Source: a virus (Duplodnaviria; Caudoviricetes). Taken from it: DNA of 64,000 nucleotides. A program made the translations under genes and the position numbers. Positions within the stretch are counted from its first letter, which is position 1, and the number at the start of each line of letters is the position of its first letter. The notes beneath the pieces are model-generated. The model ran no database searches. It was not told the origin of the DNA and was given only the letters and a program-made list of their open reading frames with translations. The DNA lies in the IMG/VR virus record IMGVR_UViG_3300023174_003901, positions 136,247 through 200,246 of that record; one strand, 5' to 3'. Positions 839 to 55,347 of this stretch are shown here, piece by piece.

Positions 839-2914
839 TTATGATTGGATGATTTGTTTCAACAACGCTAGACGGCTTTCGCGCACAGGTGCTTTTGGTT
901 GCTGTTGTTGCTTGGCTTTTTCTTGTGCTCGGGCTTTTTCACCCACACGCTTAACCATGTCCTGATATTTTTTACCATAGTCGGCTTCTTTAGGTGGCAC
1001 GTAGTCGTCCTTGGCTTCCGGCAATACAGGATCCACATGCTTGCCTAAACGACTACGAATGTGATCTTTTTTGTCTTGGGTAGGAATAAGTTGTTGGACT
1101 GCACGAGGTCTATCTCCAGGCTTCCAATCTTTAACTTTGTTAATTTTATATCCTCTGCCAGGTTCCAACCCAAAAGTTTCTATGTCGCTTTTTGGCAGTC
1201 GAGAGCCAATGGTCACTGGCCCGTCTTCCGCCATGCCTTGCTTAATTGGAGGCAATCCTCTTAACTTGACATAAGCATCAAGAATATCGGATGCAAAATC
1301 TGTATCGTACATGAGCCAGTTTAATCGTTGACGACTTCCTAACTCTTGAATAGCAATGGCAAAAGCATATCGTTGCACTAAATTGTAAGAGGTAAGTTTA
1401 GGATGTTCGGCAAATACTTTTTCTGCTAAATCTTTCGCGTATTTACGGGCAAAAGAACGGCCAAAGCGTTCGCGAATTTTATCTGTTCTTTGTTGTGGAA
1501 TATTGTCTTCGCCTTCGTCCACACCTTGCTCAATCACATCAACACCGGCCTTGCTCTGCGGACTCAACATGCGTGTGATGTCTCTAGCATTGGCTTGAAT
1601 AATTTGCTTGCCAACTTCAACATTCTGTGGAGTAAGTTCTCTAGCCACTTTGTTAATTTTGTCAACGACAGGAAGCACTGGGCTTGGTCGAGAACCAAAC
1701 ATGCCTTCTTCCACGCCCTGGTCTTCAATCTGCATCGGATTCAAAGGATCATCTGTGTAAATAGTTCTTACATCGCTGCCTGCATCACTTAGTAATTCAT
1801 CAATCATGTCACTTACATCAGAATTATGCTGAGCCTGGAATCCGGCACGTTCACCTTGTGTGATATAAATCTTTGCTATTTTTGCTGCCTGATCTAGTTC
1901 AGACCTGCTGTAACCATCTTCGCCGCCAAACCTCTTGTAGTTGGCTAAAATTACTTTGCCTATCTCCGGTCCAGGGTCTGCCTTGGGCGCCGTCTTTTTG
2001 GCAATGCTAATGATTTGATCTAAATCCTCAATTTGATTTGTATTTTCAGGTGGCCCCATGCCTTGCCACACGTCTGAAACATATCCAGGTAATCCTGTGG
2101 TCTGTAAACTCTTGTTTATATCTACAAAAAATTTATTGATTTCCTTCACAGTCTTAACAATGTTTGTTGCAAGATAGGGGTAATTATTTGATGTGTATTC
2201 CTTTGCAGTGTCAAAGAACATTTCAGTAAAGCCCTGGCTTTGCCCAGAGTCAATTGAATCCCATCCATATTTTTTACCAATAGACATTAGTTGTTGTTCA
2301 ACTTGATCGGGAGTAAATTCTATTTTACCACTGAGAAATTGGTCAGGGTCGCCGATGTTGGTTGGTATTGGTTTGCCATTGCGGCTAACACCTTTGATTT
2401 TTTTTGACCCTTGCTCACTTGCAAAACTCACTGCTACATATCCAGTTACTGGAACATATTTAGGAGTTGATTTTTGTATGTTGCCCATCATCTTTTGAAA
2501 ACGTGGGTCGTCCGTTGGACCTTCCTCTACACCTTGCTCGTCTAGGCCACGATTGTGACGCCACTGACGAACGCTCTTGCCCCGGTCACGTGCGCTGCCT
2601 AGTTTGGGTCTTAGGTCGCCTCTTTTTTCAGTCACGTCTTGCTCGCCAAAGTCATCTGCCAACCGATCAAACACAATTTGTTCAATGCGTTCAAAGTCAT
2701 CGTCTGGATGGAGACCTGCGTCAATCACAACATCGTCATACATGTCTTGCACATATCGGCCAGCAGGAGTGTTGGCACTAAACAACTCATACAATGCGTC
2801 AAAGTCTTCGCGGGCCACAATGTTGCGCAGTTCCGCGTCAATTTCACTCATCACGCCTTCAGTCATGTCTTTTTCAAACACTTGGGGTAAGTTAAAAAAT
2901 TCGTTCAGTATCAT
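839..2914 (-). CDS. modular putative internal head (virion cargo) polyprotein
   Basis: 691 aa; leader MILNEFF; repeated linkers EQDVTE, EQGVEEG, DQGVEEG, EQGVDEG, KQGMAED. Confidence 0.6.
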   Translation of the reverse strand: MILNEFFNLPQVFEKDMTEGVMSEIDAELRNIVAREDFDALYELFSANTPAGRYVQDMYDDVVIDAGLHPDDDFERIEQIVFDRLADDFGEQDVTEKRGDLRPKLGSARDRGKSVRQWRHNRGLDEQGVEEGPTDDPRFQKMMGNIQKSTPKYVPVTGYVAVSFASEQGSKKIKGVSRNGKPIPTNIGDPDQFLSGKIEFTPDQVEQQLMSIGKKYGWDSIDSGQSQGFTEMFFDTAKEYTSNNYPYLATNIVKTVKEINKFFVDINKSLQTTGLPGYVSDVWQGMGPPENTNQIEDLDQIISIAKKTAPKADPGPEIGKVILANYKRFGGEDGYSRSELDQAAKIAKIYITQGERAGFQAQHNSDVSDMIDELLSDAGSDVRTIYTDDPLNPMQIEDQGVEEGMFGSRPSPVLPVVDKINKVARELTPQNVEVGKQIIQANARDITRMLSPQSKAGVDVIEQGVDEGEDNIPQQRTDKIRERFGRSFARKYAKDLAEKVFAEHPKLTSYNLVQRYAFAIAIQELGSRQRLNWLMYDTDFASDILDAYVKLRGLPPIKQGMAEDGPVTIGSRLPKSDIETFGLEPGRGYKINKVKDWKPGDRPRAVQQLIPTQDKKDHIRSRLGKHVDPVLPEAKDDYVPPKEADYGKKYQDMVKRVGEKARAQEKAKQQQQPKAPVRESRLALLKQIIQS

Positions 2915-3591
2915 TTGGCTTCTTCCACGTAGTCTGCACTAGAGTCTGGCTGCACAGCCGGACGTCTGGCACGGTATAGATTCACTGCCATCTCGGCTTC
3001 ATCTAATTCTTTGAAACTGGATGGCATGCTTCGAGTGCCATTGTGAATGGTAAACCCTCTGCGTTGATCGCCGTGTATCTCTAGTACTGAACCATCTTCT
3101 AGCGGAATAGTCTTGACAGGTGAACTTGCAGGCTCAGGAATGGTACTAACTTGGCCTTGTCCTGGACGCATCTCATCTACTTCAACATCTTCTTCTTGAC
3201 TGTCAGGATCTGTGGGATCATTGTCTTCAATGTCTCGAACTGCTTTGTCTTTGAGATCTTGATCTACTTTGACTTTGTCGGCCAACTGATCCAAATAGTG
3301 TGTTAGGTCTTTCTTGACCTTCGAAATCATGTCTTCTTCAATCTCGGACATGGTTTCTGCCAGGGGCATTTGCCCCACTTCTACATCATCACCAAACATG
3401 TAGCCAGCCGGGCTTGCTTTCCGATTGGCATCGCCGCCTAGTACAGGTCCTTGCTTGGGCATTTTGAACAGGGCCGGCATCTGTGGCACTGATTTCTGTT
3501 GTGCGTTCAAGCCTTTCTTGACTGTGGCGGGAGTTGTCTTTCCCTCAATCAAGTCCAAGCGTTGGAGGATGCTGTAGATATCGTCGCTCAT
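2911..3591 (-). CDS. acidic putative head-associated protein
   Basis: Start revised to 3591 (ATGA overlap with the dps stop); several [ILV]xE sites. Confidence 0.55.
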   Translation of the reverse strand: MSDDIYSILQRLDLIEGKTTPATVKKGLNAQQKSVPQMPALFKMPKQGPVLGGDANRKASPAGYMFGDDVEVGQMPLAETMSEIEEDMISKVKKDLTHYLDQLADKVKVDQDLKDKAVRDIEDNDPTDPDSQEEDVEVDEMRPGQGQVSTIPEPASSPVKTIPLEDGSVLEIHGDQRRGFTIHNGTRSMPSSFKELDEAEMAVNLYRARRPAVQPDSSADYVEEAK

Positions 3592-4028
3592 GCTCGTTCG
3601 ACTTTCAAGTAACTGGTCAGTTGCCAACGATATTTGCCATGAGCACTGAGTCGTTCTGCAATGAAGTTAGCAATACCTTGTTCGTTGGCGTCATTGGCTT
3701 CTGCAAAGCAACGATTCAACAAATCCAACATCTGATCATTGTTGGCCTTGAGTTCTTCTAACATGAGTCGAGCACGGGGAATCTTTGTCTGCCCTGAGAT
3801 CTCAGTGAGTTCGCTAAACCGCTCAAAACTTGCAGGCGAATATTCACCTAGGTAGCGGATGTATTCTGCTGTGGGATCAATGGCTGAGTAAGCATCTTCA
3901 TATATCTCTTGAAAGAACCCGTGGAGTTCGCTGAAGTCTGGCCCTTCTACATTCCAGTGGAAGCCATGGGCTTTCAAGTAGTAAGCAAAATTAGTTGCTA
4001 ATAGAATTTTTAAACTGTCCGCGAGCAT
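3588..4028 (-). CDS. dps: Dps / DNA-protecting ferritin-like protein
   Basis: KAHGFHWNVEGPDFSELHGFF...D..AEYIR ferroxidase signature; 146 aa. Confidence 0.92.
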   Translation of the reverse strand: MLADSLKILLATNFAYYLKAHGFHWNVEGPDFSELHGFFQEIYEDAYSAIDPTAEYIRYLGEYSPASFERFSELTEISGQTKIPRARLMLEELKANNDQMLDLLNRCFAEANDANEQGIANFIAERLSAHGKYRWQLTSYLKVERA

Positions 4029-4203
4029 TTTTGTTCCTTTTGTATTCCTGGGGCGTGTTAGGCGTCAGGTCCCTAGTATATTTACCACTTAACATTGATC
4101 CGCCTGATCTTGCGACCATGCCCAAGGGCTGTGCGATAGTGGCTATACTACCTGCACTTGAGGTGGCAGCAGACGAATTTTCCAGGATTTCACGTGCTCT
4201 CAT
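3991..4203 (-). CDS. small protein with capsid-targeting-like leader
   Basis: MRAREILE then S/A/G-rich segment; AAGGA SD. Confidence 0.55.
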   Translation of the reverse strand: MRAREILENSSAATSSAGSIATIAQPLGMVARSGGSMLSGKYTRDLTPNTPQEYKRNKNARGQFKNSISN

Positions 4204-4492
4204 GGGGATATATCCTTAACATAGTATTTTTTATTCTTGCACTGGGTGGGCCTGAATCCACACGCAGGTTTTTAACTGTTAATCGGGCTTGACTGGGTTC
4301 AACCAGTTCATAGCGTATGTCGTACTTGCCTGGCTCAGCATACACAGGAATCAACTCTTCCAAATACTGTTCCTGCCAGATGTACGTGCGTTCCACAAAC
4401 AGTTCGTTGCCCACAAATAATCTATACACAGGCGGCCGATCCTTCCAGTCACAGTAGACATCACACTTGATCATGACATGCTCGCGGCTCAT
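4190..4492 (-). CDS. hypothetical beta-rich protein
   Basis: 100 aa, translationally coupled on both sides. Confidence 0.6.
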   Translation of the reverse strand: MSREHVMIKCDVYCDWKDRPPVYRLFVGNELFVERTYIWQEQYLEELIPVYAEPGKYDIRYELVEPSQARLTVKNLRVDSGPPSARIKNTMLRIYPHEST

Positions 4493-6009
4493 TATTCGCT
4501 CTTGTTGCCCCAGTTGGCAGCACCTTTTTTACGACACTGAACCAAGGCTCCGGACGCATAGGCCGACGGCCATACTTTGTATCTGCTTTTTACTTTGTAA
4601 TAACAAGCATCTTGTTTTTCATTTATCATCAACTCACTGAACATGGGGCCGCCACAGTTGGGACAGTGTTGTTCCTGCACAGATTTATCCTTAAGGCCCT
4701 GCACCGCAGTTGTGCGTCGGGGATCAGGAGCAGGTGCAGTGTCGGCACTGGGCAAGAACTTGACTATTGATTGCTTGGTCAGTGGACCCAATACACCATC
4801 CACATCTAAATTGGCATTGAATTTTTTGTTCAGCATCTGTTGTATTCTGCGGATTTCGTCTGAATTCTTTTGGCCTAGTGTTTCGTTAACAAATTCTTGT
4901 ATGGTATCTTTTGCTACGTCTTGCTGACCTGGTAATGTATCAGAAACGGTTATCATATTTTCAGGAACTATTTGTACGGGAACGCGGCCTTGGTAGCCTG
5001 CTACTTGATAGGCCAGGAACCGGTGATTGCCATCTATTACAAAAAGTTGTCCATTATCGTTCCACACCAGCAAAGGTTTTAACACACCATTTTGTTTTAA
5101 TTCTGGTAAAAGTTTGTTAGTTACCCAATCAGCAATTTTAGGATCTTTCATTGATTTATGCTTTTCCCACATGCGCAATTTATTGAACGGTACCAAGGTA
5201 GACGGCAAACTTTTCTTGATGTTATCATCTATTGTGGCACCTCTATGATTGGTATACACAATCACTGGTTTTTGTTCTGACCCTTCTGCTACATCTTCAT
5301 TTTTCTTTTTGTTCTTTACACAGTTGGGATACCTTTTGCCAAACATGGTTTTCATGCCTTCTTTGTGATAGCCTTTCCAGCAGGCTTCTTCTAAATCCAC
5401 GCCCTCGTCAGTTTTCTTGTTGGCATTGATGTAGGCACGATACACCGCGGCTGCTGATGCCTTGCCGGCTGCCCGGGCACGTTGTTCCATGGCCACTGCG
5501 GCCTGTATCTTGTGTGCATGGCTCCGACCACTGTTGCGTATCTTTGCAACACTGGCACGTGCGTCTTCAACTGTGGCAAACTTCAAGCCAGTTATGGTGC
5601 CTCGAGGATTCTCATCTGTGTATAAATCACTATGTTTCTTTGAATCAGCAGGTTGCCCTGGTTTCCTAGCAATTCGTGGGCTTTCCGTCACAGGCCGTTG
5701 CCAGGCACGGGCCGGAACGTTAAGTGTTTTTTCCAAATGTTTTAGTGAAGCATTTGTCAACAAGTCTGTGCTGTCTCTACCGGGTTGATAATACCACTTG
5801 CCACTTTTGGTTTGTCTTAGCCCCATAATCTTTAAATCAAGATGGTTGAAACTGCGGCCACCTCGAGCCACATCAAAGAAGTAGAGTGTGTCAGCAGGGT
5901 TGGTCACTGATTCTGTCTTGGGCTTTTTGCCGGCCTTTCGCATGGCAATGGCAATAGCGGCCTGCTGTGCAGGGTTGGCTGCTTCTGAGAAGAAATCACC
6001 GAGTATCAT
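4492..6009 (-). CDS. modular polyprotein: basic mini-domains + ParB/Srx-like + peptidoglycan-binding-like + Zn ribbon
   Basis: Leader MILGDFFSE; PLLV...VIDGNHR; LDVDGVLGPLT; CPNC; linkers VTE/LEE/VAE/VQE/INE. Confidence 0.65.
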   Translation of the reverse strand: MILGDFFSEAANPAQQAAIAIAMRKAGKKPKTESVTNPADTLYFFDVARGGRSFNHLDLKIMGLRQTKSGKWYYQPGRDSTDLLTNASLKHLEKTLNVPARAWQRPVTESPRIARKPGQPADSKKHSDLYTDENPRGTITGLKFATVEDARASVAKIRNSGRSHAHKIQAAVAMEQRARAAGKASAAAVYRAYINANKKTDEGVDLEEACWKGYHKEGMKTMFGKRYPNCVKNKKKNEDVAEGSEQKPVIVYTNHRGATIDDNIKKSLPSTLVPFNKLRMWEKHKSMKDPKIADWVTNKLLPELKQNGVLKPLLVWNDNGQLFVIDGNHRFLAYQVAGYQGRVPVQIVPENMITVSDTLPGQQDVAKDTIQEFVNETLGQKNSDEIRRIQQMLNKKFNANLDVDGVLGPLTKQSIVKFLPSADTAPAPDPRRTTAVQGLKDKSVQEQHCPNCGGPMFSELMINEKQDACYYKVKSRYKVWPSAYASGALVQCRKKGAANWGNKSE

Positions 6010-6272
6010 GATTTTTTCCTCTTTGTAGACACATTGATGGCTGGGCCTGAGCGTTCAGGATTGGGATCTTGTTTGCGTTTGCGGCTAGCGGCACTTGCAC
6101 GACCTTTCTTGCCCAGTGAGTGTGCCTTGGAGGCAGGCAAGCACTTGGGTTTGCCTTCAGAATCTGATCCTCTGGCACAATCGCCGCGGATTTTACCATC
6201 AGGACCAAATCGTACCCATTTGTCTTTAAACCACTTGCGTAGGTTTTCGTTCATGAATTCATCGGCTCTCAT
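6006..6272 (-). CDS. small basic protein with capsid-targeting-like leader
   Basis: MRADEFMNE then NLRKWFKDKWVRFG...C..G....GKPKCLP module. Confidence 0.7.
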   Translation of the reverse strand: MRADEFMNENLRKWFKDKWVRFGPDGKIRGDCARGSDSEGKPKCLPASKAHSLGKKGRASAASRKRKQDPNPERSGPAINVSTKRKKS

Positions 6273-6277
6273 ATGTT

Positions 6278-6283
6278 TACTTA
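6278..6283 (-). promoter_or_regulatory. late-promoter-like TAAGTA
   Basis: 5 nt before ATG 6272, no SD. Confidence 0.5.
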
Positions 6284-6296
6284 GCCCTGTCGGCTT

Positions 6297-6767
6297 TTAC
6301 CTTATTCTGTGCAGTAGATAAACTGTGGTGTTGGCCATGTCACTGCGATCCAATCTATAACCCCAGGCCTGAGCATAGCGTTGCACCAGGCGATCATAGA
6401 GATTGCTTCGGCTCATGGGTTTCTGTCCAGGCTCAACATCTTTGTCGGCTGTGAAACGCAGGGTTTCAGGCTGTTCCATTTCTATGAATTGACCAATAGC
6501 GGTCAACACTGTGGCAAACACTCGCTGAGCATCACCGGCTCCGGAAATGTCCAGGCGATTGTCGCGCCAAAATTCAACTACCCAATCTTCATTGTCGGCC
6601 ACATCAGAATCAGTATAGAAATTGATTGTGAGATTGGTGCCATCTGGCAGTCGTGCTAAGGCATCATATCTAGGATCCTGTTCAGCACCGGGCTCGTCCT
6701 GATTGTTGTCCCAGTGAAATGCATAGGGTTGGTCAAATGCTTCTAAGATAATATCTGTGACCCTCAT
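6297..6767 (-). CDS. hypothetical protein with capsid-targeting-like leader
   Basis: MRVTDIILE leader; ATGA-coupled. Confidence 0.6.
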   Translation of the reverse strand: MRVTDIILEAFDQPYAFHWDNNQDEPGAEQDPRYDALARLPDGTNLTINFYTDSDVADNEDWVVEFWRDNRLDISGAGDAQRVFATVLTAIGQFIEMEQPETLRFTADKDVEPGQKPMSRSNLYDRLVQRYAQAWGYRLDRSDMANTTVYLLHRIR

Positions 6768-8206
6768 TTTTTCTTTGCCTTTGCTCTACCAGCCTTCATA
6801 TTGGCCAACCAGTGTGCCATGCGTTGCTTTTCACCTGAACTATTTTTAGCAGTTTTTCTCAGACTGCTTACTGATGCCTTGGTGTTCACACCTGAACGCT
6901 TGGCAAGTCCTTTGCGGCCAGGATTCTTGCCATCAGCAAAGTTTTCTGCTACACCTTGCTTGGGAATCAACAATTCAGGCATACGATACTCACTGACATC
7001 TACTGGATATGGCTGTAGTGATGCTTTGTATAATTCGGCATACTGTTGTTTTTCTTCGGATGTCTTGGCTCTGTAAAACTTGTTGGCAATGGCCATGTCG
7101 CCCACCAAAGTTCCTGGTGGAATTGAAATCTTTTTTGGACCATAGTATTTTAATTTGTCAGAATCTTTGTTGGTCAAACTGTAAAAGGTTGATTCCCATT
7201 TGTCCGGGTGCAAGGCATATTGTGCTGTTGTTCTTTCTGGCACAAACTCTGCAAGTGTATCTGCACCAGGATGAAATTTACCTAACTTGGATAAACTTAT
7301 AGCAGTATCATTGCTTTCGCCTTCCGCAACAACCGGTTTGACAGGAACATAGGCAGGCACACTGGTCATGCCTGCTTCTACCGCGGCTACAGCACGATGG
7401 TTGCCATCAATGATCCAACCCTGTGAATCAACCACAATGGGCATACTTTTTAACACTGATCCAATCCGTGGTATCAATTCTTGAACTTTGTCATTGTCCA
7501 CCCAGTTCACACGATTGTAAGGATCCGGTTCTTCGCCATCAGGATCCAAGTTCAGTTGTGACAAGGGAATACTCTTTAATTCCCACTCAGGATGATCAGT
7601 TATGCTGTATTCAATGTCAAATGCTTCTGGAGCATGAGCACGTTTGACATAATCAAGCACTTGGTCGGCCGCCATGGATTCTGTTATGCCTGGCCTGCTT
7701 TGTGCCACGGCCACATAGGCAGGACCAACGTAGCCATCAGGATACCGGGCAAAGTGTTGTATGGTTCTATGCCAACCTTCCAACAGTTCATAACCGTTGC
7801 CAAATTTAATTAATATTGCAGGTTCTCGACTCACACCGCCCTGTTGTATCAATGCCGCTTGTGTGGCATGTCTTTCAGCATCTTTGGGTATGCCCATACC
7901 CATGTCACTGGTGCCGCCTGCACGACCAATTAACTTTCGTTTGCTCTTCGGCTCAAACATGTCCATGGTAAACTTCATGTTGGGTACAAGTTGCCAAGGG
8001 TTGACATTAGGACTTAGTCCTGCATCTGCGATCATTTCGATAATTTCATCTTTGACTGCTCTACTATCAGTGGTGTAATTTTTATTTTTACCGCGACCTT
8101 TGTACAACCAGTCTTGCACAACATATTCTGGCCATGTGGGAACAATGCTTCGGATGTATTGATACATCCTGTCTCTGAGTTCTATTAAAAATTCACTTGC
8201 TCTCAT
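6764..8206 (-). CDS. modular polyprotein with two ParB/Srx-like domains and a basic C-terminal mini-domain
   Basis: MRASEFLIE; LLEGWHR and IIDGNHR motifs; linkers PGITE, PVVAE, KQGVAE. Confidence 0.7.
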   Translation of the reverse strand: MRASEFLIELRDRMYQYIRSIVPTWPEYVVQDWLYKGRGKNKNYTTDSRAVKDEIIEMIADAGLSPNVNPWQLVPNMKFTMDMFEPKSKRKLIGRAGGTSDMGMGIPKDAERHATQAALIQQGGVSREPAILIKFGNGYELLEGWHRTIQHFARYPDGYVGPAYVAVAQSRPGITESMAADQVLDYVKRAHAPEAFDIEYSITDHPEWELKSIPLSQLNLDPDGEEPDPYNRVNWVDNDKVQELIPRIGSVLKSMPIVVDSQGWIIDGNHRAVAAVEAGMTSVPAYVPVKPVVAEGESNDTAISLSKLGKFHPGADTLAEFVPERTTAQYALHPDKWESTFYSLTNKDSDKLKYYGPKKISIPPGTLVGDMAIANKFYRAKTSEEKQQYAELYKASLQPYPVDVSEYRMPELLIPKQGVAENFADGKNPGRKGLAKRSGVNTKASVSSLRKTAKNSSGEKQRMAHWLANMKAGRAKAKKK

Positions 8207-11200
8207 ATCATCACCGGCAACACTTCAATATCTGCACCTGGTGCAGGGGATAACGATCCTTGACGACGTTGATCCTGCAACCAAGTTTGTGCAATGCGAT
8301 TGGCATCTGCTTGATTGTTGCCTACACCACGGAAGCGCCATACTTCTTCGCCATCAATCATGACTCGCCACTGTCCACTAAAACTATTGCCAGGCGGTGC
8401 CGAACTGGCCTGATCTGTGGTGCCAAACAAGTCTCTGAATGAGTAATCCGTGTTGCGGCCATTGGTACGGTCCGGGAAGTTCTGTGCCACATCCATGGGA
8501 ACTTCGGGAATTTCCTGCTGTGCCGCAACTGGATTGAATATCACCTGCAGACTCAGTTGACGGGCATCAACACCATGTCTGCGGGCTGTGTCGTCTCGTA
8601 CCGCCAGGGCCTGATCCTGACTGGCACCACGTACGGTGTTGAGTGTCTCGTCAGTCTCACGATCCACTATGCGCCAGTCACGTGGAATTTGAGAAGGTTG
8701 AGGTCTGATCTCTTGGAATCCGTAGTCTTCAGTAGTTGTGGGCAGGCCAGCGGCTGCCAGCCACTCTCCATAAATTCTGTTGGCATCTCTGCGATCGTCA
8801 GCACGGAATCTAAACACAGGGTTAGTATTGAACCGATCCACAACTGCATAGTTGGCGTTGGTTGATTGACTTGGCAAGCCCAGGCGGTTCTCCATGTCGG
8901 TCTGTGTGCCTACGTTGGCCCCACTGCCTGTACCTCTAGTTCTCACACCGTAGAGATCGTGCCGTCCAGTGGAAATAAGTGCCATGGCTTGACGTTGTGC
9001 CGCGCCACGATCAGTTATGGGTTGTCCGCCCTGAAGAAGATTAACCGTACTGTTGCCAGTTTGTCTGTTGTAAACTTCCCAAGGCCCAGGTCCGGTAGGC
9101 CGCAAAGGGTTGGACGCGGCGTCTTGATCGGTATTACCGCTGCCATCCACAGGTCTAGCACCAAACAACAAGCGAGCATCTACTGTGCCTATGCCGTGGG
9201 GACCAAAATTGATATAATCATCTAATCTTGTGTTTACATCTGATTGATTGCGAGCAGAGAATTCAGTGTCGGGGACGGCCTCACCAGTGCGTCTATCGAA
9301 CAGTTCATAGGTTCCTGTGCCGGTCTGTGGTGCGCCAGGTTTGTCTGGTTGTTCATCGTAGGGCCGTAAAACTTCAGCATCCATTTGAGCCAGAGTGTTG
9401 ACCAAGAGTGGTTCGCCCCATTCTTTTGCAGCCTTCTGTTTGGCTTCTTCTTCTGAGGTAGCAACCACTTCCACTGTGTAACTATATTGGCCAGCATTCT
9501 TGCCGTATTTGTAAACTTTCCACCACATTTTTTGGCCGTCAGTCTTGCCACGTTTGATATTGCGTTGTAACTGTGCCTGTTTGATAAAACTACGCAGGGC
9601 CGCTTTGGGAATCTTGCCGGCCACATAGTCACTAAAGTACTTGATGGTGTCGTCATCTCGGTTGTTTTCAGTCAACATTTTGTAGAGTTTGGTCAGGTAC
9701 TCTTGACGATACATTTCAGGATTTAGTGCCGCACTCATGGCCACAGTAAATCTCAACAGAGTGTTTTCAATCTTGTCAAAATTTTCGTCCAACCAGTCGC
9801 CACCGGGTGAGCGGAATTCAATGTGTCCATCCTTGGTGTTGATTGATGTATACTTGCTGGTGATGCCTGAGTGTATGGCCTTGCTGGCCAACTGATCCAA
9901 GTTGCCCTTCATCTTGTCCAACAACTGGGCGGCATTGTCAGGATTGTCACGCACAGCCCGTTTCACAATGTCCAGTGCTGATTTGGCATAGGTGTTGCCA
10001 CTACGACCAAATGCATCCAGCACATATTTGTCACCCATGAGCAGGGCCAGTTTAACAAAGTCCAAGTTTTCTCTACTGTAGTCCGGCACAGAGATATTGA
10101 TGTGCAGGCCAGTTGAATCATTGGTGTAACAACCATACTCCTTGGCCCAGCGTTTGACTTTGTTCAAGTCGCTGAGTATTTCATCAATAGGCAAGGGTGG
10201 ACTCACAAACTCCAGGCCTTGATCGTTGGGATCATCTGGTTCCAGGCTGCCATCTGGTTCCACCACATATCGTATTTGAGTTGGGCTGGGACGGATTGTA
10301 CTGCCTGAGTGATAGTTGCCACTGGCTCTGACATCGCGACCAATGGCATTTTCAAACTCTTGTGCCACATCTTCAATGCTGGCTTCGCCACCGCTTTGGG
10401 GGTCGCTCCAGTGCGGCCAACTCATGCTGTAGGCATTTTCAATTTCGCTCATGTTACTTAGATCTGCACCATCCAACCAGTCGCTTTCGTCATAACTTTC
10501 TTGATTTTCTTCGCGGAACTCTTCGTAGGCTGTTTGATATTGATCACTCACAGGATCAGCATGAACATTGGCAGCATATTCTTCCAGGGCTTCTGTGCGT
10601 TCCAGGTCAGATTTTTCCTCTGGATTCCACTCTGACTCGTCTACGTTTTCTTTAACCCATTGATATATGTATTCCTCACCCCCACTGTCCCAGTCGTCGG
10701 AGATCTTTTGATCCAACCATTCTGTATAGTCGTTCCGCATGCTGTCACGCATCTCATCGCAACTGCGGCGACTGTTCCAGTCACCATCATAGAAAAAGTC
10801 ATATGCATCCTGTATGCTACGGCAACGTTGGTCGTAGTCGTAGTCGGGTTCCTGGTCGGCATCACCGCTGCCGCCTTCAACATTGGGCACAATCATTTCA
10901 AATTCCATACCGGCTATGGCGCCGGTCTTGGCAGCCTCTCGACGCAGGTTCTTTGAACCCATATTGATTTCAAACAGGTCTTGTTGTTTGAATTGAGCCA
11001 GTTCCTCTGCTAAACTTTCGTTTAGTTTGGCGGTCAACAATGCAGGACGACCTTGAGCGTCTGTTTGTAGTCCTAGTTTGTTGGCTTCTTTGCCCACAGC
11101 ACCTGGTCGAACGTCTCGAGTCAAGGCCATGATAAAGCGTGGATCACGGGCCTGTTTCTTTGTGGGAATGTATCCTGAGGCTTCCTCCAATGGCACATGG

Positions 11201-12300
11201 GCAAACATCTCAGGATGTTTCTCTGCCCAGTGACGCATGATGCGACCTGCCATGGCATTGGCTTCATCTTCATAGGGACTGCCTGTCTCTCCGGCATTGT
11301 CGGGTAGTTTTTGTTTCTCTGCTTGCTTGCGATGTGTAAACTCATGGGCCATGGTTCGCAGGATGTCTAGAGTGTGGCGGCCTGCTGTGGCCAAGTGTAG
11401 CACATTGTTTTCGGGCTCATATTGACCAAACGATCCTGTCTGTTCACTCCAGTCTGTGCTGGTATGCAATTCAATACGGGGTGATTTCTTGATACCCAGG
11501 TACTCTATACAACTCTGTGCAAACTGATTGATAGTGTCTTGTAGTCCATCTTCAGACTCTGTGGTAAAGCCATAAGTCACATGTGGCTTGGCACGTTCAT
11601 CAATACTGAGTTCTTGGTCCTTGGCAGCATTTCTGGCATCTACTAACTTTTGAATATAACCTTGTGTGCGCAACATCTTGAATGCAAGATTCTCAGGACC
11701 AAACTCGCCATGCTCATCAAGACCGCTTTGGCGTAGTTGTCGAATCTTGGCCATCAAATCAGCCATGACCGCATGGTCTTGAGTCTTGATAGCATCTTGG
11801 ATGCGTTGTTTTAAATCTTGATACTTGCTACGAGTGTTTTGATCCACAACATCAGCACGTTGACGACGTGGTACTTGAATCCAGTCGTTGCGGAGCAAAC
11901 TGTATTCACCTTGTGTCACATGTGGTTGGTCTACATCTTGCACATACAGTTCAACATCATAGCCGCCAATCTTGATGTTGTGCTGATTGTTATATGCGTA
12001 CTTTTTGGCATCAAACAATTCACGATATACCTCATCATTGGGTATGTCAACCACAAGGTGCAGGTCTATGTCTGAATTGGGGGTATATGTGTAAGCGGCG
12101 TTTGATCCGCTGAGTGTGATGTCTTTTAGATCGAGATCTTTCACGCCCAGTGTTGCACGAAAATCATCTGCAATTTTCATCAGTGCGTCACGCACTTGGG
12201 GCTTCAAATGCTCGTCCTGGCCCCATATTCGGGGGTTTAGACGAGCATTGAATTTTACAGCGTCGGAAAGTTTATAGCGGTCTAACTCATGGAGATTCAT
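8203..12300 (-). CDS. Pol-beta-like nucleotidyltransferase + HExxH metallopeptidase + putative amidoligase + C-terminal repeats
   Basis: GSNAAY...SDIDLH; AHEFTH; GMEFEM / EPDGSL / GLEFVSPP / TGLHINIS; 1365 aa. Confidence 0.75.
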   Translation of the reverse strand: MNLHELDRYKLSDAVKFNARLNPRIWGQDEHLKPQVRDALMKIADDFRATLGVKDLDLKDITLSGSNAAYTYTPNSDIDLHLVVDIPNDEVYRELFDAKKYAYNNQHNIKIGGYDVELYVQDVDQPHVTQGEYSLLRNDWIQVPRRQRADVVDQNTRSKYQDLKQRIQDAIKTQDHAVMADLMAKIRQLRQSGLDEHGEFGPENLAFKMLRTQGYIQKLVDARNAAKDQELSIDERAKPHVTYGFTTESEDGLQDTINQFAQSCIEYLGIKKSPRIELHTSTDWSEQTGSFGQYEPENNVLHLATAGRHTLDILRTMAHEFTHRKQAEKQKLPDNAGETGSPYEDEANAMAGRIMRHWAEKHPEMFAHVPLEEASGYIPTKKQARDPRFIMALTRDVRPGAVGKEANKLGLQTDAQGRPALLTAKLNESLAEELAQFKQQDLFEINMGSKNLRREAAKTGAIAGMEFEMIVPNVEGGSGDADQEPDYDYDQRCRSIQDAYDFFYDGDWNSRRSCDEMRDSMRNDYTEWLDQKISDDWDSGGEEYIYQWVKENVDESEWNPEEKSDLERTEALEEYAANVHADPVSDQYQTAYEEFREENQESYDESDWLDGADLSNMSEIENAYSMSWPHWSDPQSGGEASIEDVAQEFENAIGRDVRASGNYHSGSTIRPSPTQIRYVVEPDGSLEPDDPNDQGLEFVSPPLPIDEILSDLNKVKRWAKEYGCYTNDSTGLHINISVPDYSRENLDFVKLALLMGDKYVLDAFGRSGNTYAKSALDIVKRAVRDNPDNAAQLLDKMKGNLDQLASKAIHSGITSKYTSINTKDGHIEFRSPGGDWLDENFDKIENTLLRFTVAMSAALNPEMYRQEYLTKLYKMLTENNRDDDTIKYFSDYVAGKIPKAALRSFIKQAQLQRNIKRGKTDGQKMWWKVYKYGKNAGQYSYTVEVVATSEEEAKQKAAKEWGEPLLVNTLAQMDAEVLRPYDEQPDKPGAPQTGTGTYELFDRRTGEAVPDTEFSARNQSDVNTRLDDYINFGPHGIGTVDARLLFGARPVDGSGNTDQDAASNPLRPTGPGPWEVYNRQTGNSTVNLLQGGQPITDRGAAQRQAMALISTGRHDLYGVRTRGTGSGANVGTQTDMENRLGLPSQSTNANYAVVDRFNTNPVFRFRADDRRDANRIYGEWLAAAGLPTTTEDYGFQEIRPQPSQIPRDWRIVDRETDETLNTVRGASQDQALAVRDDTARRHGVDARQLSLQVIFNPVAAQQEIPEVPMDVAQNFPDRTNGRNTDYSFRDLFGTTDQASSAPPGNSFSGQWRVMIDGEEVWRFRGVGNNQADANRIAQTWLQDQRRQGSLSPAPGADIEVLPVMI

Positions 12301-12305
12301 GAGTG

Positions 12306-12311
12306 TATTTA
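12306..12311 (-). promoter_or_regulatory. late-promoter-like TAAATA
   Basis: 5 nt before ATG 12300, no SD. Confidence 0.6.
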
Positions 12312-12314
12312 CCG

Positions 12315-13253
12315 TTAAGCGGCTTTGGTGGCCTTGACTTTCTTATCTGCCTTTTTATCTACTTTTTTGCTGGTTGCAATCACTTTTGCTTCCACAGGCA
12401 CCGCAGTTGTTTGTGCGGCAGCGGCAGCAATCTGATTGTTCACAGCAATTTCATGCAGGTCTTGATACAGTTTGTCCTGTGTTTGATAGTCAAACACATA
12501 GGTACCTGTATGTCGGAGCAACACACGGCGATCAATCCAGACTTGGCCACCCAGGTCACGCCAGTTTTCACAGAATGTCCAGTCTTCTGAGTAGTAACGA
12601 TTTTCACGCACTGCTGTGTCAAAGTAGGTTTTCATGTAAGGGTTAAGAACAGGGTCCAGACCAATATCATTGGTAAATGGCTTCACAGCAGGGTGTGCAT
12701 TGAGTTTCTCAAACACTTCACGCTTCATGAGCAAGAAGCCCGTGCCGGTCTTGGTAACTTCAACCAAGCCTGATGGATCATCTTGTGGTGTGCCAGGAAT
12801 GCCGTTCACGCACCATTTCACTGGCAACGACTTCATTGGATACAATCCGCCTACCACATCCTTTTGATGGTTCAACATGGCCAACAAGTGCCAGGGCTCC
12901 CAACCAATGTCAGCGTCAATAAACATCAAGTGTGTGGATTCTTTTGTGTGCAAGAACTTGGCAGTGAGTGTGTTACGTGCGCGGCTAATAAGTGATTCAT
13001 TAGTCATGGTTTCTACTGTCCAATCAATGCCCAGTTGACGAGCAGTGTTAGCCCACTTGATATAACTCATGAATGTTGATTCAGTCAGCATACCACCATA
13101 ACATGGCATGCAAATATGCACTCGTGTGGTTTTCAAATAATCAAGATTTACTTGAATTTGGTTCTGTGGTTGTCCATTTGGAGTTTCCTGCGGTGCCAAT
13201 GGCACGTCTGAAGGCAGTGTGGCTGGGGGTGTGGTTCCGGTTTGGGTTATCAT
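12315..13253 (-). CDS. GT-A fold glycosyltransferase-like protein
   Basis: ICMPCY...ESLISRARN...HLMFIDADIGW (DxD)...YYSEDWTFC. Confidence 0.75.
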   Translation of the reverse strand: MITQTGTTPPATLPSDVPLAPQETPNGQPQNQIQVNLDYLKTTRVHICMPCYGGMLTESTFMSYIKWANTARQLGIDWTVETMTNESLISRARNTLTAKFLHTKESTHLMFIDADIGWEPWHLLAMLNHQKDVVGGLYPMKSLPVKWCVNGIPGTPQDDPSGLVEVTKTGTGFLLMKREVFEKLNAHPAVKPFTNDIGLDPVLNPYMKTYFDTAVRENRYYSEDWTFCENWRDLGGQVWIDRRVLLRHTGTYVFDYQTQDKLYQDLHEIAVNNQIAAAAAQTTAVPVEAKVIATSKKVDKKADKKVKATKAA

Positions 13254-13277
13254 AAGTTCCTCGTTAAAATTGTATAA

Positions 13278-13283
13278 TATTTA
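13278..13283 (-). promoter_or_regulatory. late-promoter-like TAAATA
   Basis: Upstream of GAGGA SD and ATG 13253, inside a CGTTAAA/TTTAACG inverted repeat. Confidence 0.55.
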
Positions 13284-13302
13284 ACGAGTTTAGCACAGGG
13301 CG

Positions 13303-14340
13303 TTATTTTTTGCGACCTGCACAATGAGCACGTTGACTAAAACCTCGAGGATTGGCACAATTGATACTGCTCTTGTACTTTTGACTCCACTTTTCTTCTA
13401 TGTAGTCTTCACTGACCGGAGTATCTGCGGCAGTCCATTCAAAATCACTGTCACGCACTCCAAACTTTTTGCTGAGTTTGGCCAGTAGTGCATCCAGTAC
13501 TGTTGCGGGCACATTCTTGGCCACCACACGCCGGCCACTACTGCGAGGATCAGGACGATAGAATATGTCAATTCGTTTGGGATTAACATTGTGTGTTTCA
13601 TCTACATTGTTGCTGTTCAATTGGTCTTCAATATCACTGCCAATTTCGTGTCCGGCCACACGCATGCCCAGTGTGCCCATGGTTCCAAGTTCTGTGGCGG
13701 CGGCCAGTCTTCCGCCCAAGGCCGCACCCAGTGCAGGTAAGAATTCATTCAGTTGTTCACCAATGGCTGTGTCCAACATTTTAACAACTGTGGCTGCCAG
13801 TTTAGGATTGGTTTGTGTTTTGGGATAAAGGCTCATTACCAAGGCTGTCTTGCGTTTGTCATTCAGTGTGGGCCAGGCAGTACGAATTTCTGTAGCCGAC
13901 GTCATGCCAGGACCAAACTCCACAGTGGGCAAGTAAGTCATGTAAGCGTGTCGGTTCATGGGATAAAGAACGTCTTGTCCTGCCAGTGGTTGCAGATACG
14001 CTGGGTTGCCATCTTTTTTGATGCCACCTGCTTGTGGCGGCTTGTTGGCGTCTTTTTCTGAACGCACAAATATCAATTGTGTATCTTCGGGATTGTAATT
14101 TTTGGTAATTTCTTCAGCACGAAATGGTGATTTAACTTGATAAAAGTCTCCGGGCTTGACTCCAGCCAACTGGGCTAGTTTTTCTTTTATTTTAAAAGGA
14201 AACGGACGCTGACTTGTGTCATTGGTGGCAGCCACTTTGATATCGGCACCAGGAAACGCTTCTTGTGCAGATTGATAAAGTGCGTGGTGTCCGGCGTGAA
14301 AAGGATGAAATCCGCCAGGCATGATAACCAATTGTTTCAT
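13303..14340 (-). CDS. HxGH (cytidylyltransferase-like) nucleotidyltransferase with appended modules
   Basis: Start revised to 14340; IMPGGFHPFHAGH; C-terminal LNE/VDE/VSE/IEE-delimited modules. Confidence 0.7.
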   Translation of the reverse strand: MKQLVIMPGGFHPFHAGHHALYQSAQEAFPGADIKVAATNDTSQRPFPFKIKEKLAQLAGVKPGDFYQVKSPFRAEEITKNYNPEDTQLIFVRSEKDANKPPQAGGIKKDGNPAYLQPLAGQDVLYPMNRHAYMTYLPTVEFGPGMTSATEIRTAWPTLNDKRKTALVMSLYPKTQTNPKLAATVVKMLDTAIGEQLNEFLPALGAALGGRLAAATELGTMGTLGMRVAGHEIGSDIEDQLNSNNVDETHNVNPKRIDIFYRPDPRSSGRRVVAKNVPATVLDALLAKLSKKFGVRDSDFEWTAADTPVSEDYIEEKWSQKYKSSINCANPRGFSQRAHCAGRKK

Positions 14341-18246: not shown

Positions 18247-18280
18247 GTGATTGTGTCCTGAAGAGGTTGTCATACAATTG

Positions 18281-18309
18281 ATTATACATGAATAGGGCTG
18301 GGCAAGCAA
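18281..18309 (-). promoter_or_regulatory. sigma70-type promoter for clpA
   Basis: TTGCTT-N17-TATAAT, extended TG. Confidence 0.6.
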
Positions 18310-18324
18310 CCTTTATGGCTCAAT

Positions 18325-18330
18325 TACTTA
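18325..18330 (-). promoter_or_regulatory. late-promoter-like TAAGTA overlapping the dnaJ stop
   Basis: The TAA is the dnaJ stop codon. Confidence 0.35.
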
Positions 18331-21109: not shown

Positions 21110-21122
21110 GTGCTCCTTCTAA

Positions 21123-21128
21123 TATTTA
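21123..21128 (-). promoter_or_regulatory. late-promoter-like TAAATA
   Basis: Directly follows the stop of the upstream gene; same TAATAAATATT context as 20323. Confidence 0.55.
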
Positions 21129-21848: not shown

Positions 21849-21857
21849 GGTTTGTCC

Positions 21858-22622: not shown

Positions 22623-22623
22623 A

Positions 22624-33624: not shown

Positions 33625-34374
33625 TTATTTTCCAGCCACTGCCAGTGCGGCGCCTTTGTTGAAACTGGGACTCCAGGGACTGTTGGCCTGAACCAAACCT
33701 TTGCGCTTGCTCCAATTGTAGCCAGCACGATGTCCTGAGCAGTCCTTGGTACAGGTTGAGCCCAGGAACTGTAATTCACTCAATTGCTCACGTCCTTTGA
33801 TGCCAATGACCATTGAGCGTTGATACTCAGTTTCAGGATCTTCCAGGTCCCATGTGCCTGAATACAGTACTGATTCTAATGGATATGCCTGTAACAGTTC
33901 TTCAGGAGATTCGTATGCGTTTTGTTCCACAGCATCTCGTCCTTGCATGATCACCAGGGTGCCGTCAGGAATATTATCAAACCATCCGTGGTCAGCAATG
34001 TCGTTGATGCTGGTGTTTATGACTAGTCCGGGCTGTTCAAGTTGTCTGTAGTCTAGTTCATTGACATCAGCCTGCATGTGTTCCACACCTGAAATATTCA
34101 TATCTTGTTGCAATTGCTGACCAGTACGCAACCATTCGCCTCGTTGTTCTACATCCACAATTCGATCAATAGGCACGCCTGTTCTGCGTAGGATTGTGCT
34201 GAGATTGCTGTACCAAGAGCCCAGTATGTAAGCAACAGGTACTGATTCAACGCCCTGTTGTTCCAGTATCAATTTGAGTTCACGGGCCAGCCACAGTTTG
34301 CTGAACACCAGATCCGGCGTGTAACTGCCCTCTAAACTAGGGCCGCTGGATTCAAAGATATCACCCAGATTCAT
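33625..34374 (-). CDS. methyltransferase-like protein with capsid-targeting-like leader and basic C-terminal mini-domain
   Basis: MNLGDIFE; SKLWL; ILGSWY; D.N..; VINTS; LSE then FLGSTCTKDCSGHRAGY. Confidence 0.55.
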   Translation of the reverse strand: MNLGDIFESSGPSLEGSYTPDLVFSKLWLARELKLILEQQGVESVPVAYILGSWYSNLSTILRRTGVPIDRIVDVEQRGEWLRTGQQLQQDMNISGVEHMQADVNELDYRQLEQPGLVINTSINDIADHGWFDNIPDGTLVIMQGRDAVEQNAYESPEELLQAYPLESVLYSGTWDLEDPETEYQRSMVIGIKGREQLSELQFLGSTCTKDCSGHRAGYNWSKRKGLVQANSPWSPSFNKGAALAVAGK

Positions 34375-34803
34375 TTAGTTGGCCTTTTGCCCGCGATCTT
34401 TTTCAGTGATAGGACCGCCTACTACCCAGCCCGCACAGGTTCTGGTTCCAGCACATTTAAAGTGTAGAAAATTGCAGTAGCCAAGATCACTCAAGTTTAT
34501 TGTGGCCACAGCGTCTGCATGTTTTTCATCGCCTTGGATTCCTGACTCGATACACTTGCGCATACTGTCACTGGCATCAAACGCCGCACAGTTGCCGCAA
34601 AGCATGGTCTTTACAGTTTTTTCTGGCACCGCCCAACGCTTGGCAGCACCTGCCCAATAGTCGCCTGGCTCTAGTGGATTAGCCGGGCCGTAGTGATAGT
34701 CGTCAATGGCTGTTTGGCGATTTTTAAGATTTAAGGTGATATCATGCGTGGCAATAGGACAGCCCTTTTGCACCGCTTCCACAAGATTGATGTACTGTCT
34801 CAT
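34375..34803 (-). CDS. Cys-rich (CxxC...GYC...C...CxxW) protein with capsid-targeting-like leader
   Basis: MRQYINLVE; CGNC; GYCNFLHFKCAGTRTCAGW. Confidence 0.6.
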   Translation of the reverse strand: MRQYINLVEAVQKGCPIATHDITLNLKNRQTAIDDYHYGPANPLEPGDYWAGAAKRWAVPEKTVKTMLCGNCAAFDASDSMRKCIESGIQGDEKHADAVATINLSDLGYCNFLHFKCAGTRTCAGWVVGGPITEKDRGQKAN

Positions 34804-34811
34804 TGGGTACC

Positions 34812-35726
34812 TTAGGCCTTTTTGGGCAATGCTTTGTAGTTGGATTTCTTGTCAGCGCGATTAAACTCTCGTGCTACTGATTGTTTGATGCCTACTTTGC
34901 GAGCAAACTCGGGATTGTGCGCAGCCGCTGCCATTGTGCGGAACTGTGCTTGGCTTGTGGACTTTTCATTCAAGTCGCCTTCGTGTACTCCGGTATCTGC
35001 CATAGCATGGCCCACAGCATGGCCGTGTGCTCCTCCGGCCACAGCACCCTGTGCCACGTGTCCTGCCGCTTGGCCAGCACGTTTTTGCCAATTAGGGTCA
35101 GGAGTAAAAGACTTTTTAATATTGTCCCATACACCTTCTGTTAAATCTTCTGCGGCCCATGAGACGTAACTATCGCCATTGATGTCACCAGCACGTATCA
35201 CAAACACGCCACCGTTGTCGTAGCCGCCTTCGTCTTCGCCAATTTCCCAGCCCATTTTTGCCAGTGCGGCTTCAATTTGCATTTGTGTTGCTTCGTCTCC
35301 GGCCCACCACATTCTAGCGTAGTTATGTAAGGCATCGTCTTCACCGCCACTGTCACCATCATCGGCTGCAAATTCATTTAGGCCTTCGCTCAAGTCCTCA
35401 TCTGAAAAGGCCATAAAATCATATGGTCCCCACTTTTGTCCTGTGCGACTGTCTATAGTGTCATCGTGATCACCATATTCATAGTAGTCATCACTGTAGA
35501 TTTCCACACCGTCAAAGTCACCATTGTAATCAATATGCAGTTTACGTGTTTTACCATCAGGACAAACAATGCCGCGATTTAGTAAACGTTCAACATCTTG
35601 TTGACTCTTGATACCTTTTTGCAGACTACCTGTGTCAAAGGTACCATTGTACCAGGCCGAGGCCAGGGCTTGGAAGTAGTTGCCTGAATCTCCGCCACCT
35701 GAGGGTGCAAATTCTCTCAGTCTCAT
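34812..35726 (-). CDS. modular acidic polyprotein with a basic C-terminal mini-domain
   Basis: MRLRE-FAP; LSE, LNE-FAA, LTE, VHE and LNE linkers. Confidence 0.6.
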   Translation of the reverse strand: MRLREFAPSGGGDSGNYFQALASAWYNGTFDTGSLQKGIKSQQDVERLLNRGIVCPDGKTRKLHIDYNGDFDGVEIYSDDYYEYGDHDDTIDSRTGQKWGPYDFMAFSDEDLSEGLNEFAADDGDSGGEDDALHNYARMWWAGDEATQMQIEAALAKMGWEIGEDEGGYDNGGVFVIRAGDINGDSYVSWAAEDLTEGVWDNIKKSFTPDPNWQKRAGQAAGHVAQGAVAGGAHGHAVGHAMADTGVHEGDLNEKSTSQAQFRTMAAAAHNPEFARKVGIKQSVAREFNRADKKSNYKALPKKA

Positions 35727-55128: not shown

Positions 55129-55347
55129 TTACTTGCGTCGGGTAATACGACCCTTGGTAAGATCGTAGGGTGAAAATTCCATTTCAACCCGATCTCCTAG
55201 CAACACCTTGATGTTGTTTTTGCGCATACGCCCACTCAAGTGTCCTAATACCTGAGCGTCTATGTTGTCTAACTTGACCCTAAACATGGTAGCCGGTAGT
55301 ACCTCTTCAACACGGCCTTCCATGTTTATAATATCTTCTTTTGCCAT
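55129..55347 (-). CDS. infA: translation initiation factor IF-1
   Basis: MAKEDII.MEG.V.EVLP...FRV.L...[28 protein letters not shown]; 72 aa. Confidence 0.95.

Follow-up and report, generated by a model that had tools for sequence, protein, structure and literature searches.

The 64,000-nucleotide stretch analysed here (the window) forms the final 64 kb of one viral contig of 200,246 bp, IMG/VR record IMGVR_UViG_3300023174_003901, with an estimated completeness of 58% (CheckV). Its positions 839–14340 hold a cluster of genes that an earlier note, made from the letters alone, had proposed to encode cargo polyproteins, in which unrelated modules are joined by short repeated linkers and cut apart inside the capsid. 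The 691-, 505-, 480-, 1365-, 357- and 304-aa proteins of the window are strings of modules, with 4–8 modules per reading frame, and all of the linker strings quoted by that note were found in the genes it had named. All of the polyprotein genes and sites of the window described below lie on the minus strand; in peptide strings, a slash marks the bond after the predicted P1 glutamate.

Polyproteins encoded in the window

The 691-aa polyprotein (P0001, 839..2914) opens with a capsid-targeting-like leader (MILNEFFNLPQVFEKDMTE, residues 1–19, 2858..2914) that has a predicted cut after E19, and continues as modules 20–96, 97–131, 132–403, 404–467, 468–563, 564–633 and 634–691. The first of these (module A) starts at G20, as seen in an internal copy of it in a relative (L105). 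The linkers are EQDVTE/ (aa 91–96, 2627..2644), EQGVEE/G (aa 126–132, 2519..2539), whose DNA fits a 21-nt consensus described below at 18/21 positions, DQGVEE/G (aa 398–404, 1703..1723), EQGVDE/G (aa 462–468, 1511..1531; 19/21 to the consensus and one end of a natural module swap or deletion) and KQGMAE/D (aa 558–564, 1223..1243). A degenerate site, VLPE/A (aa 630–634, 1013..1027), precedes the constant C-terminal module and takes part in the joint 1020/1524 in relatives; in L048 and in the variants P0008, P0016 and P0020 the same C-terminal module stands directly after QGVAE/ or PGVAE/.

The 505-aa polyprotein (P0002, 4492..6009) has the leader MILGDFFSE and the sites VTE/S, LEE/A, VAE/G, (QDVAK), IQE/F, VQE/Q and INE/K, within PVTE/S (106–110), VDLEE/A (204–209), EDVAEG (238–243), SVQE (443–446) and LMINE (460–464) for those that the earlier note had listed. 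Among its modules are one ParB-like and one peptidoglycan-binding-like domain, as well as a pair of small Cys modules in common with cyanomyoviruses. A 156-aa single-module protein (6297..6767) has the leader MRVTDIILE/A, and its homolog L119 begins MRIKEIILE/S. The 480-aa polyprotein (P0003, 6764..8206; leader MRASEFLIE) has the sites MFE/P, ITE/S (PGITE, 172–176), VAE/G (PVVAEG, 291–296) and QGVAE/N (KQGVAE, 416–421), and contains two weak ParB-like domains, the first inferred from a GWHR motif and the second a weak Pfam/PHROG match. Its alignment was kept at 9 rows; a 30-row MAFFT version put short segments wrongly. The C-terminal module of P0003 (aa 422–480, window 6941–6764) is very basic (pI 11.9, NFADGKNPGRKG...AKAKKK). 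In related contigs, more than 20 proteins that otherwise differ end in this module, at their extreme C-terminus; it is a candidate DNA-binding or anchoring tail.

In the 1365-aa protein (P0004, 8203..12300), a nucleotidyltransferase (1–234, ending at IDE/R) is followed by an HExxH zincin-like module (~245–366, LEE/A), a small module (374–~428, LNE/S), LFE/I, an amidoligase (~445–900) and a long C-terminal part. The previously quoted PLEE, KLNE and DLFE are all present, and each part of P0004, with domains taken from Pfam and PHROGs, is found alone or with other partners in relatives. The 357-aa protein (P0005, 13303..14376) comprises a cytidylyltransferase-like part, a middle part (LNE/F to VSE/D) and a C-terminal Cys module after IEE/K, with the sites QLNE, NVDE, PVSE and YIEE. 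A second small cluster (33625..35726) encodes a 249-aa protein (MNLGDIFE/S), a 142-aa protein (MRQYINLVE/A) and the 304-aa four-module polyprotein, laid out as MRLRE/F; LSE/GLNE/F; LTE/G; VHE/GDLNE/K. The sites at times come as tandem pairs five residues apart (GLDE-QGVEE, DLSE-GLNE). The shared module start E-FA(P/A)xxG, also reported earlier, is real: MRLRE/FAPSGGG opens the 304-aa protein, and the same module follows QGLNE/FAPAGGGG in a 918-aa frame of a relative.

Module boundaries coincide with the sites

The strict linker has high specificity. In the contig's proteome of 63,747 aa there are three instances of QGVxEG, all within the 691-aa protein, and seven of QG[VMIL]xE, four of them in the 691-aa protein, one in the 480-aa protein and one (EEQGMAE/DD) in an acidic gp68-like head-core protein beside the prohead protease gene. 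At the DNA level, the 21-nt linker consensus has two matches in the window with at most 3 mismatches (0.00 expected). Taken alone, the loose [ILVM]-x-E strings that the earlier note also listed are at chance level; what gives them meaning is solely their coincidence with module edges that were defined independently.

Those edges were defined by homology. When 1.84 billion representative proteins were searched by HMMER with the 691-aa protein, 332 relatives matched it over single pieces (14/17–96/100, 123/128–389/404, 394/402–464/475, 466–564, 556/558–634 and 627/631–691). The position of these pieces varies widely within the relatives, which range from 61 to 1601 aa in length. Half of the internal stretch ends (134/268) lie within 5 aa of E19, E96, E131, E403, E467, E563 or E633, where 29.3 are expected (p<5e-5). 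Likewise, when 21 polyproteins from the window and eight related loci were compared by BLASTP, 23/115 ends of high-scoring segment pairs (HSPs) fell within 3 aa of [GD][VMIL]xE (7.1 expected), and in a blastn comparison of 130 polyprotein ORFs, 348/1148 HSP ends fell within 12 nt of a linker 21-mer (43 expected). That the sites mark module edges is borne out by these three comparisons and, as described next, by degenerate sites and structure models, five independent tests in all. Every module edge examined fits P1 Glu with V, L, M or I at P3.

Individual modules at degenerate sites point the same way. The module after PVTE/S in P0002 corresponds to the N-terminus of cyanophage Bellamy gp123, and the amidoligase after QDLFE/I in P0004 aligns with free-standing amidoligases of the phages RsoM2USA (M..KLSE/L) and Atu_ph07 (M..KLTE/L). 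A module with the motif KWSxKYKSSINC is preceded by YIEE/, by QLDE/ or by N-terminal leaders such as MRAKEFISE/. For this module, for FAPxGGG and for the RsoM2USA and Atu_ph07 amidoligases, the module starts at the same residue whether a leader or an internal linker precedes it. In AlphaFold models of the 691- and 480-aa proteins, the leader and 9/9 sites lie in coil with pLDDT below 50, between better-predicted blocks, and in these two models of modest quality no linker sits inside a confidently folded domain. When the P0001 model, which includes a conserved 272-aa module, was compared with the PDB by Foldseek, no match reached an E-value below 0.017.

Modules are exchanged at the linkers

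Variants of P0001 from other samples, more than 90% identical in parts, hold other module sets that are always joined at the sites. Variant P0008 reads leader-A-B-C-D-new-tail, P0020 reads leader-A-B-new-tail, P0011 carries the leader directly on module D, and in P0010 module C precedes B, the reverse of the order in the window. The leader (MILNEFFNLPQVFEK.M.E) and a tail ending LLKQIIQS are kept in most P0001 variants. Across P0008–P0059, many variants keep the first 19 and the last ~58 residues (..LLKQIIQS) while the inner cassettes change; the P0001-type gene thereby resembles an array set in a constant frame, whose tail may itself take part in loading or in binding DNA. When lake metagenome contigs of four runs were aligned to the region, in-frame deletions and replacements of modules showed joints in P0001 at aa 464–632 (ends inside EQG/VDEG, where the slash marks the exchange point, and at VLPE/A), in P0002 at aa 235–367 (KNEDVAEG and QQDVAK) and at aa 104–206 (RPVTE/S and VDLEE/A), and in P0005 at aa 206–323 (EQLNE/F and PVSE/D). 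Relatives have up to ~16 linker sites per reading frame. Edges at the sites, together with near-identical variants whose different module sets are joined there, strongly support mix-and-match at the linkers, and module order varies across relatives rather than being fixed. The linker is the exchange point of the modules.

The linker is also conserved as DNA and is widespread, neither of which the earlier note had seen. The consensus in relatives, GAGCAAGGTGTGGCGGAAGGC, is fixed also at silent codon positions. At 36 G-V-A-E sites, taken from loci that were found by protein similarity to P0001 and hence unselected for linker DNA, the codons are GGT in 34/36, GTG in 31/36 and GCG in 30/36, against same-gene backgrounds of 39%, 30% and 10%. 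Third-codon-position information is ~0.8–1.4 bits over the core linker codons and mostly 0.1–0.2 in the flanks. Among the matches listed, more than 120 IMG/VR stretches contain the exact 18-mer GCAAGGTGTGGCGGAAGG, and in 122/122 listed cases it is in frame as QGVAEG, within long ORFs (median 527 aa, maximum 1570 aa). A Peptidase_S77 gene lies on three of the five largest 18-mer contigs among the matches listed; the other two are incomplete. In relatives the linker thus gives 18–21 bp of in-frame identity between otherwise unrelated cassettes. This identity may by itself drive the recombination; in a stronger and hypothetical form, a specific nuclease or recombinase may act on the 18-mer.

Since the data all come from metagenome assemblies and the linker is a repeated 18–21-nt sequence, chimeric joins at a short repeat had to be considered. 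Independent contigs reproduce the arrangement of the window over several linkers with 0 differences (X2 record 1, 1204–2781; X4 record 9, 901–1780), and this agreement between separate runs and studies argues against chimeric assembly. In addition, the repeat is shorter than the 31-nt words behind the contigs, all 122 listed occurrences are in frame in long ORFs, and degenerate, non-repeated sites act alike. We regard an assembly artefact as close to excluded. Three further explanations of the linker do not fit the sequence: 2A-like ribosome skipping, as NPGP is absent; internal translation starts, as the Shine-Dalgarno-like AAGGTG is not followed by a suitably spaced start codon; and internal repeat or duplication, as the linker flanks are unrelated.

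A more serious alternative is that the proteins stay whole, with the linker a flexible spacer and DNA recombination joint whose likeness to a protease site is coincidental. The conserved silent positions and the exchange points on the linker are what this would predict, the known T4 protease rule does not need Q-G at P5-P4, and polyvalent proteins of other phages are deliverable uncleaved, e.g., the N4 virion RNA polymerase (PMC5512222). However, degenerate sites that lack DNA conservation (VTE, LEE, ITE, LPE, INE, LFE) keep aliphatic-x-Glu at module edges, the tandem double sites fit redundant cutting, and the leaders end in the same pattern, with the shared module start residues described above. 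We therefore consider uncleaved proteins unlikely, while ranking them first among the alternatives.

Leaders, head-core proteins and the prohead protease

T4 gp21 cleaves after Glu in L/I-X-E, cutting the core proteins gp22, gp67 and gp68 into many pieces (PMC9026906), and removes the T4 capsid-targeting sequence (CTS) MKTYQEFIAE (PMC8442874; PMC10229621). The contig encodes a Peptidase_S77 (gp21-type) prohead protease (PF03420, 87.9 bits, contig positions 23906–24349, in a minus-strand gene at about 23,760–24,400) and a gp23-type capsid protein (327 bits) in a head module with the T4-type order portal, gp67-like, acidic gp68-like, protease, scaffold, capsid. The major capsid protein is 61–65% identical to those of the jumbo phages PA5oct, Vibrio 2.275.O, Atu_ph07 and XaC1 (T4-core). 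The cargo region recurs nearly word for word in lake and freshwater metagenomes of several studies. There appears to be no cultured close relative, as megablast of the region and tblastn of P0001 gave no match among 50,697 phage records. The T4 late promoter TATAAATA was not found within the window.

A T4 capsid-targeting-like leader starts most of the polyproteins; this is a likeness of pattern, homology being unprovable over 10 residues. The window leaders are MILNEFFNLPQVFE.. (MILNEFF..), MILGDFFSE, MRASEFLIE, MRVTDIILE, MNLGDIFE, MRQYINLVE and MRLRE/F. In relatives, the pattern M-x(2-4)-[DEQN]-[ILVFYM]-[ILVFAM]-x(0-2)-E opens 31/86 complete polyproteins as compared to 72/552 other ORFs (p=9e-7), and the 72 are mostly single-module proteins with MRAxEFIxE or MKTFxQYLxE. 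The gp67-like core proteins of this phage and its relatives begin MILNE.., MILNEFF.. or MILMELLE, and the gp68-like acidic core proteins of this genome and three relatives contain G-M-x-E, with A, G, S or D, hence a small or acidic residue, directly after it. Beside P0001, a 238-aa protein with a TTG start (window 2911..3627, minus strand) contains ..ATDQLLESR, a copy of the capsid protein start MSEQLLESR (contig 21427–22638); it may be a further head-addressed protein, with a second head address or a shared propeptide.

The presence of the S77 protease, the fit to L/I-X-E, the CTS-like leaders and the core proteins with the same leader and G-M-x-E make cutting inside the capsid by the prohead protease plausible. 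Cutting by another peptidase, possibly in the cytoplasm and either by the HExxH zincin-like module of P0004 or by a host protease, was also considered. HExxH modules are frequent in or near the polyproteins of relatives, and embedded metallopeptidases are the published processing model for polyvalent proteins. The P0004 module itself weakly resembles DUF6782, a putative metallopeptidase family (18.8 bits, below the cut-off of 27; E=0.001); a sequence search found no solved relative for it, and there was no significant match to the metallopeptidase family of polyvalent proteins. Most polyproteins are without any peptidase module. As published work on T4-type and phiKZ-type prohead proteases gives a Glu cut with aliphatic P3 as their signature, and head-core proteins encoded next to the protease gene share both motif and leader, we consider another peptidase quite improbable, the least likely of the readings in which the proteins are real.

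Under the mechanism that we propose, a leader of the form M-x-[LIV]-x-[DE]-[FIL]-[FLI]-x-E would address each protein to the prohead scaffolding core. It would be followed by 2 to more than 10 unrelated modules, mostly basic and with a median of ~107 aa, joined by (E/Q)-Q-G-V-A-E-(G/A) or by a degenerate [ILVM]-x-E. The activated gp21-type protease would then cut after each linker Glu (P3 aliphatic, P1 Glu), removing the leader and freeing the modules as separate small internal proteins and enzymes. The freed nucleotidyltransferases, ParB-like nucleases, amidoligase, zincin-like peptidase and small basic Cys modules would remain with the DNA and pass into the host at infection.

Module content

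In the window, Pfam and PHROGs identify nucleotidyltransferase, amidoligase, cytidylyltransferase-like and weak ParB-like domains, to which the modules of relatives add GNAT, LysM, DUF5661 and DUF6886; most modules have no Pfam or PHROG match. The 599 segments have a median length of 107 aa and a median pI of 9.07, with 65% above pI 8, reminiscent of the basic T4 internal proteins. Single-linkage clustering chained 182/599 segments into one group, and family counts were therefore kept to "hundreds, mostly singletons". Judged by domain content, the modules may have an anti-host or anti-defence effector role. They could also be packaged and cut by the prohead protease and yet not act as injected effectors, being instead disposable filler of the core or scaffold, or internal proteins that condense DNA: the modules are largely basic, many are tiny and most lack an enzyme signature, T4 gp22, gp67 and gp68 are likewise cut into many pieces, and the gp67-like core protein shares the leader. 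Several modules, however, are enzymes or known domains (nucleotidyltransferases, ParB-like nucleases, amidoligase, GNAT, LysM), and the extreme module turnover between near-identical strains looks like that of arms-race cargo. A filler role seems to us improbable, more so than uncleaved proteins and slightly less so than another peptidase.

Strength of the proposed pathway

Several points weigh against packaging, cutting and delivery as a whole. Prohead targeting, cleavage, persistence in the head and injection are all steps that we infer. The P3/P1 rule is short, and the loose [ILVM]-x-E occurs at 13.5 per 1000 aa everywhere in the proteome, which is chance level when taken alone. The extended consensus (Q-G at P5-P4 and G/A at P1') is outside the published T4 rule and could serve a DNA-level role alone, and the likely maturation site in the major capsid protein is LKE/N, which lacks the Q-G-V-A-E form. 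The linkers of the window are more degenerate in DNA than those of relatives, with 15–19 of 21 positions kept. P0005 has no leader of its own although its homologs have one. At 1365 aa, P0004 would be a large cargo, though the literature cited here has T4 packing large fusion proteins. Finally, the AlphaFold models are poor to modest (mean pLDDT 54.6 for the 691-aa and 49.5 for the 480-aa protein), and low confidence at the linkers is therefore weak proof of disorder.

Taking these points together with the evidence above, we consider it somewhat probable that these are head-cargo polyproteins of a T4-core jumbo phage that are packaged, cut by the prohead protease and delivered as effectors. 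The linker would then be read twice, once as a putative protease site and once as a recombination joint, for which the pattern is observed directly and the mechanism is one that we infer. More tentatively, and with a likelihood that we place a little short of even, it may be a dual-coded element, at once a head-protease site and a near-invariant 18–21-bp in-frame exchange junction, which builds integron-like arrays between a constant leader and tail and acts as an evolvability device for virion-delivered arsenals in hundreds of uncultured T4-core phages of freshwater and other aquatic habitats.

Neighbouring genes

A Dps/ferritin-like protein (window 3588–4028, minus strand; PF00210, E=2.4e-18) without a leader is encoded between two cargo genes, and a glycosyltransferase-like gene without a leader is also found among them; hence not every gene in 839–14340 belongs to the system. 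About 1.6 kb upstream of the cargo genes, on the same strand, a full DnaJ (J domain and C-terminal domain) lies beside a ClpA/ClpB-like double AAA+ chaperone of 776 aa (Clp_N + AAA + AAA_2 + ClpB_D2-small), in window 15979–19119 (minus strand). It is a speculation that such an unfoldase and co-chaperone might help to load or fold polyprotein cargo. Window 20336–22622 (minus strand) holds three adjacent paralogs of 254, 257 and 239 aa with Gly/Ile-rich N-termini; a concanavalin-A-like lectin domain was recognised in the one tested (Laminin_G_3, E=9e-14), and the three may be fibre or decoration proteins. Farther away, a radical SAM enzyme (53561–55126, minus strand; PF04055, E=1.3e-12) and translation initiation factor IF-1 (55129–55353, minus strand; PF01176, E=2.8e-21) are encoded.

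Relation to known systems

[quoted passage not shown] Both have a short leader ending in aliphatic-x-Glu (MKTF(x)QYL(x)E or MRAxEFIxE in this group, MKTYQEFIAE in T4) and a gp21-family protease, and the predicted products here are small and mostly basic. T4 internal-protein cargo is hypervariable behind a conserved address (PMC3012670), as is the cargo here. The T4 proteins, however, are single proteins cut once by the leader, whereas here there are many modules per reading frame with a standard internal site, which makes this system a variant rather than a plain member of the class; in addition, the internal site here is conserved as DNA and serves as a swap point.

Polyvalent proteins (Iyer, Burroughs, Anand, de Souza and Aravind, 2017; PMC5512222) are large mosaics of conflict domains, for which the prediction is that they accompany the DNA and are split into separate units by embedded metallopeptidases. 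The likeness lies in the disparate conflict-type domains (nucleotidyltransferase, HExxH and amidoligase in P0004, ParB-like in P0002 and P0003) and in extensive shuffling. The published model, in contrast, has no standard linker, prohead-protease sites, capsid-targeting leader or DNA-conserved junction, and the signature Pfam families of polyvalent proteins gave no match here apart from the sub-threshold hit of the HExxH module to DUF6782. In phiKZ, 201phi2-1 and SPN3US, many head proteins are cut after Glu, in a short motif, by a gp21-related protease, with several sites per protein, and cargo is ejected. These belong to a different phage lineage in which no shuffling linker is described for phiKZ or SPN3US, and all cuts identified in SPN3US remove N-terminal propeptides, while the cuts predicted here lie between functional modules.

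T4-like cyanophages encode bead-string proteins (S-SCSM1 gp29, Bellamy gp123 and the S-B43 "structural protein") that have modules in common with P0002 and P0005 at 60–85% identity, the two small Cys modules of P0002 among them. Their modules are likewise bounded by [ILVM]-x-E and their order differs per phage, but they have no QGVAEG consensus and no reported DNA-level linker; we found no description of them as polyproteins in the papers examined. The bead-string gene of T4-like cyanophages lies between the small and large terminase genes, and just upstream of it is a 51-aa free-standing module of the KWSxKYKSSINC type (Bellamy gene 122, L003:5843–5998). S-SCSM1 gp29 shares two modules with P0002 and is annotated "virion protein". 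The virion proteome of S-SCSM1 was determined by mass spectrometry (PMC9602691), and gp29 is not listed in the part of the supplement examined; the annotation may be taken as indirect support for packaging, by analogy. Virions of cyanomyoviruses have repeatedly been found to contain NMNAT- or cytidylyltransferase-like enzymes (PMC9602691). BLAST shows no link between these NMNAT-like virion proteins and the enzyme part of P0005, and only the C-terminal Cys module of P0005 matches cyanophages, so this precedent holds at the superfamily level (PF01467) only.

Such linkers were not found in the literature searched on T4 internal proteins, phiKZ-like maturation and polyvalent proteins, a search by motif strings returned alpha-synuclein and unrelated papers only, and combinations of terms led to nothing closer. 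Outside phages, polymorphic toxins also use short peptides to border exchangeable cassettes (VENN in CdiA, PxxxxDPxGL in Rhs), and the Rhs motif is a self-cleavage site as well. Those are bacterial secreted proteins with one variable C-terminal cassette, not virion cargo, and they involve no capsid protease. What appears to be new here is that putative capsid-targeted cargo of the T4 type takes the form of polyproteins, whose linker would have two uses.

Implications

That a coding linker is conserved even at its silent sites is a clear instance of DNA-level selection for recombination within an open reading frame. If cutting and delivery are as proposed, a single gene would supply a whole set of small proteins for entry into the host along with the DNA, and phages could reshuffle this set among themselves at a standard joint. 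This would explain the fast renewal of first-minute counter-defence and takeover functions in large phages, and it would give context to hundreds of unannotated small domains as candidate injected effectors or defence inhibitors. The combination of leader and linker would, in addition, be a naturally occurring, modular rule for designing T4-type capsids that are loaded with several proteins.

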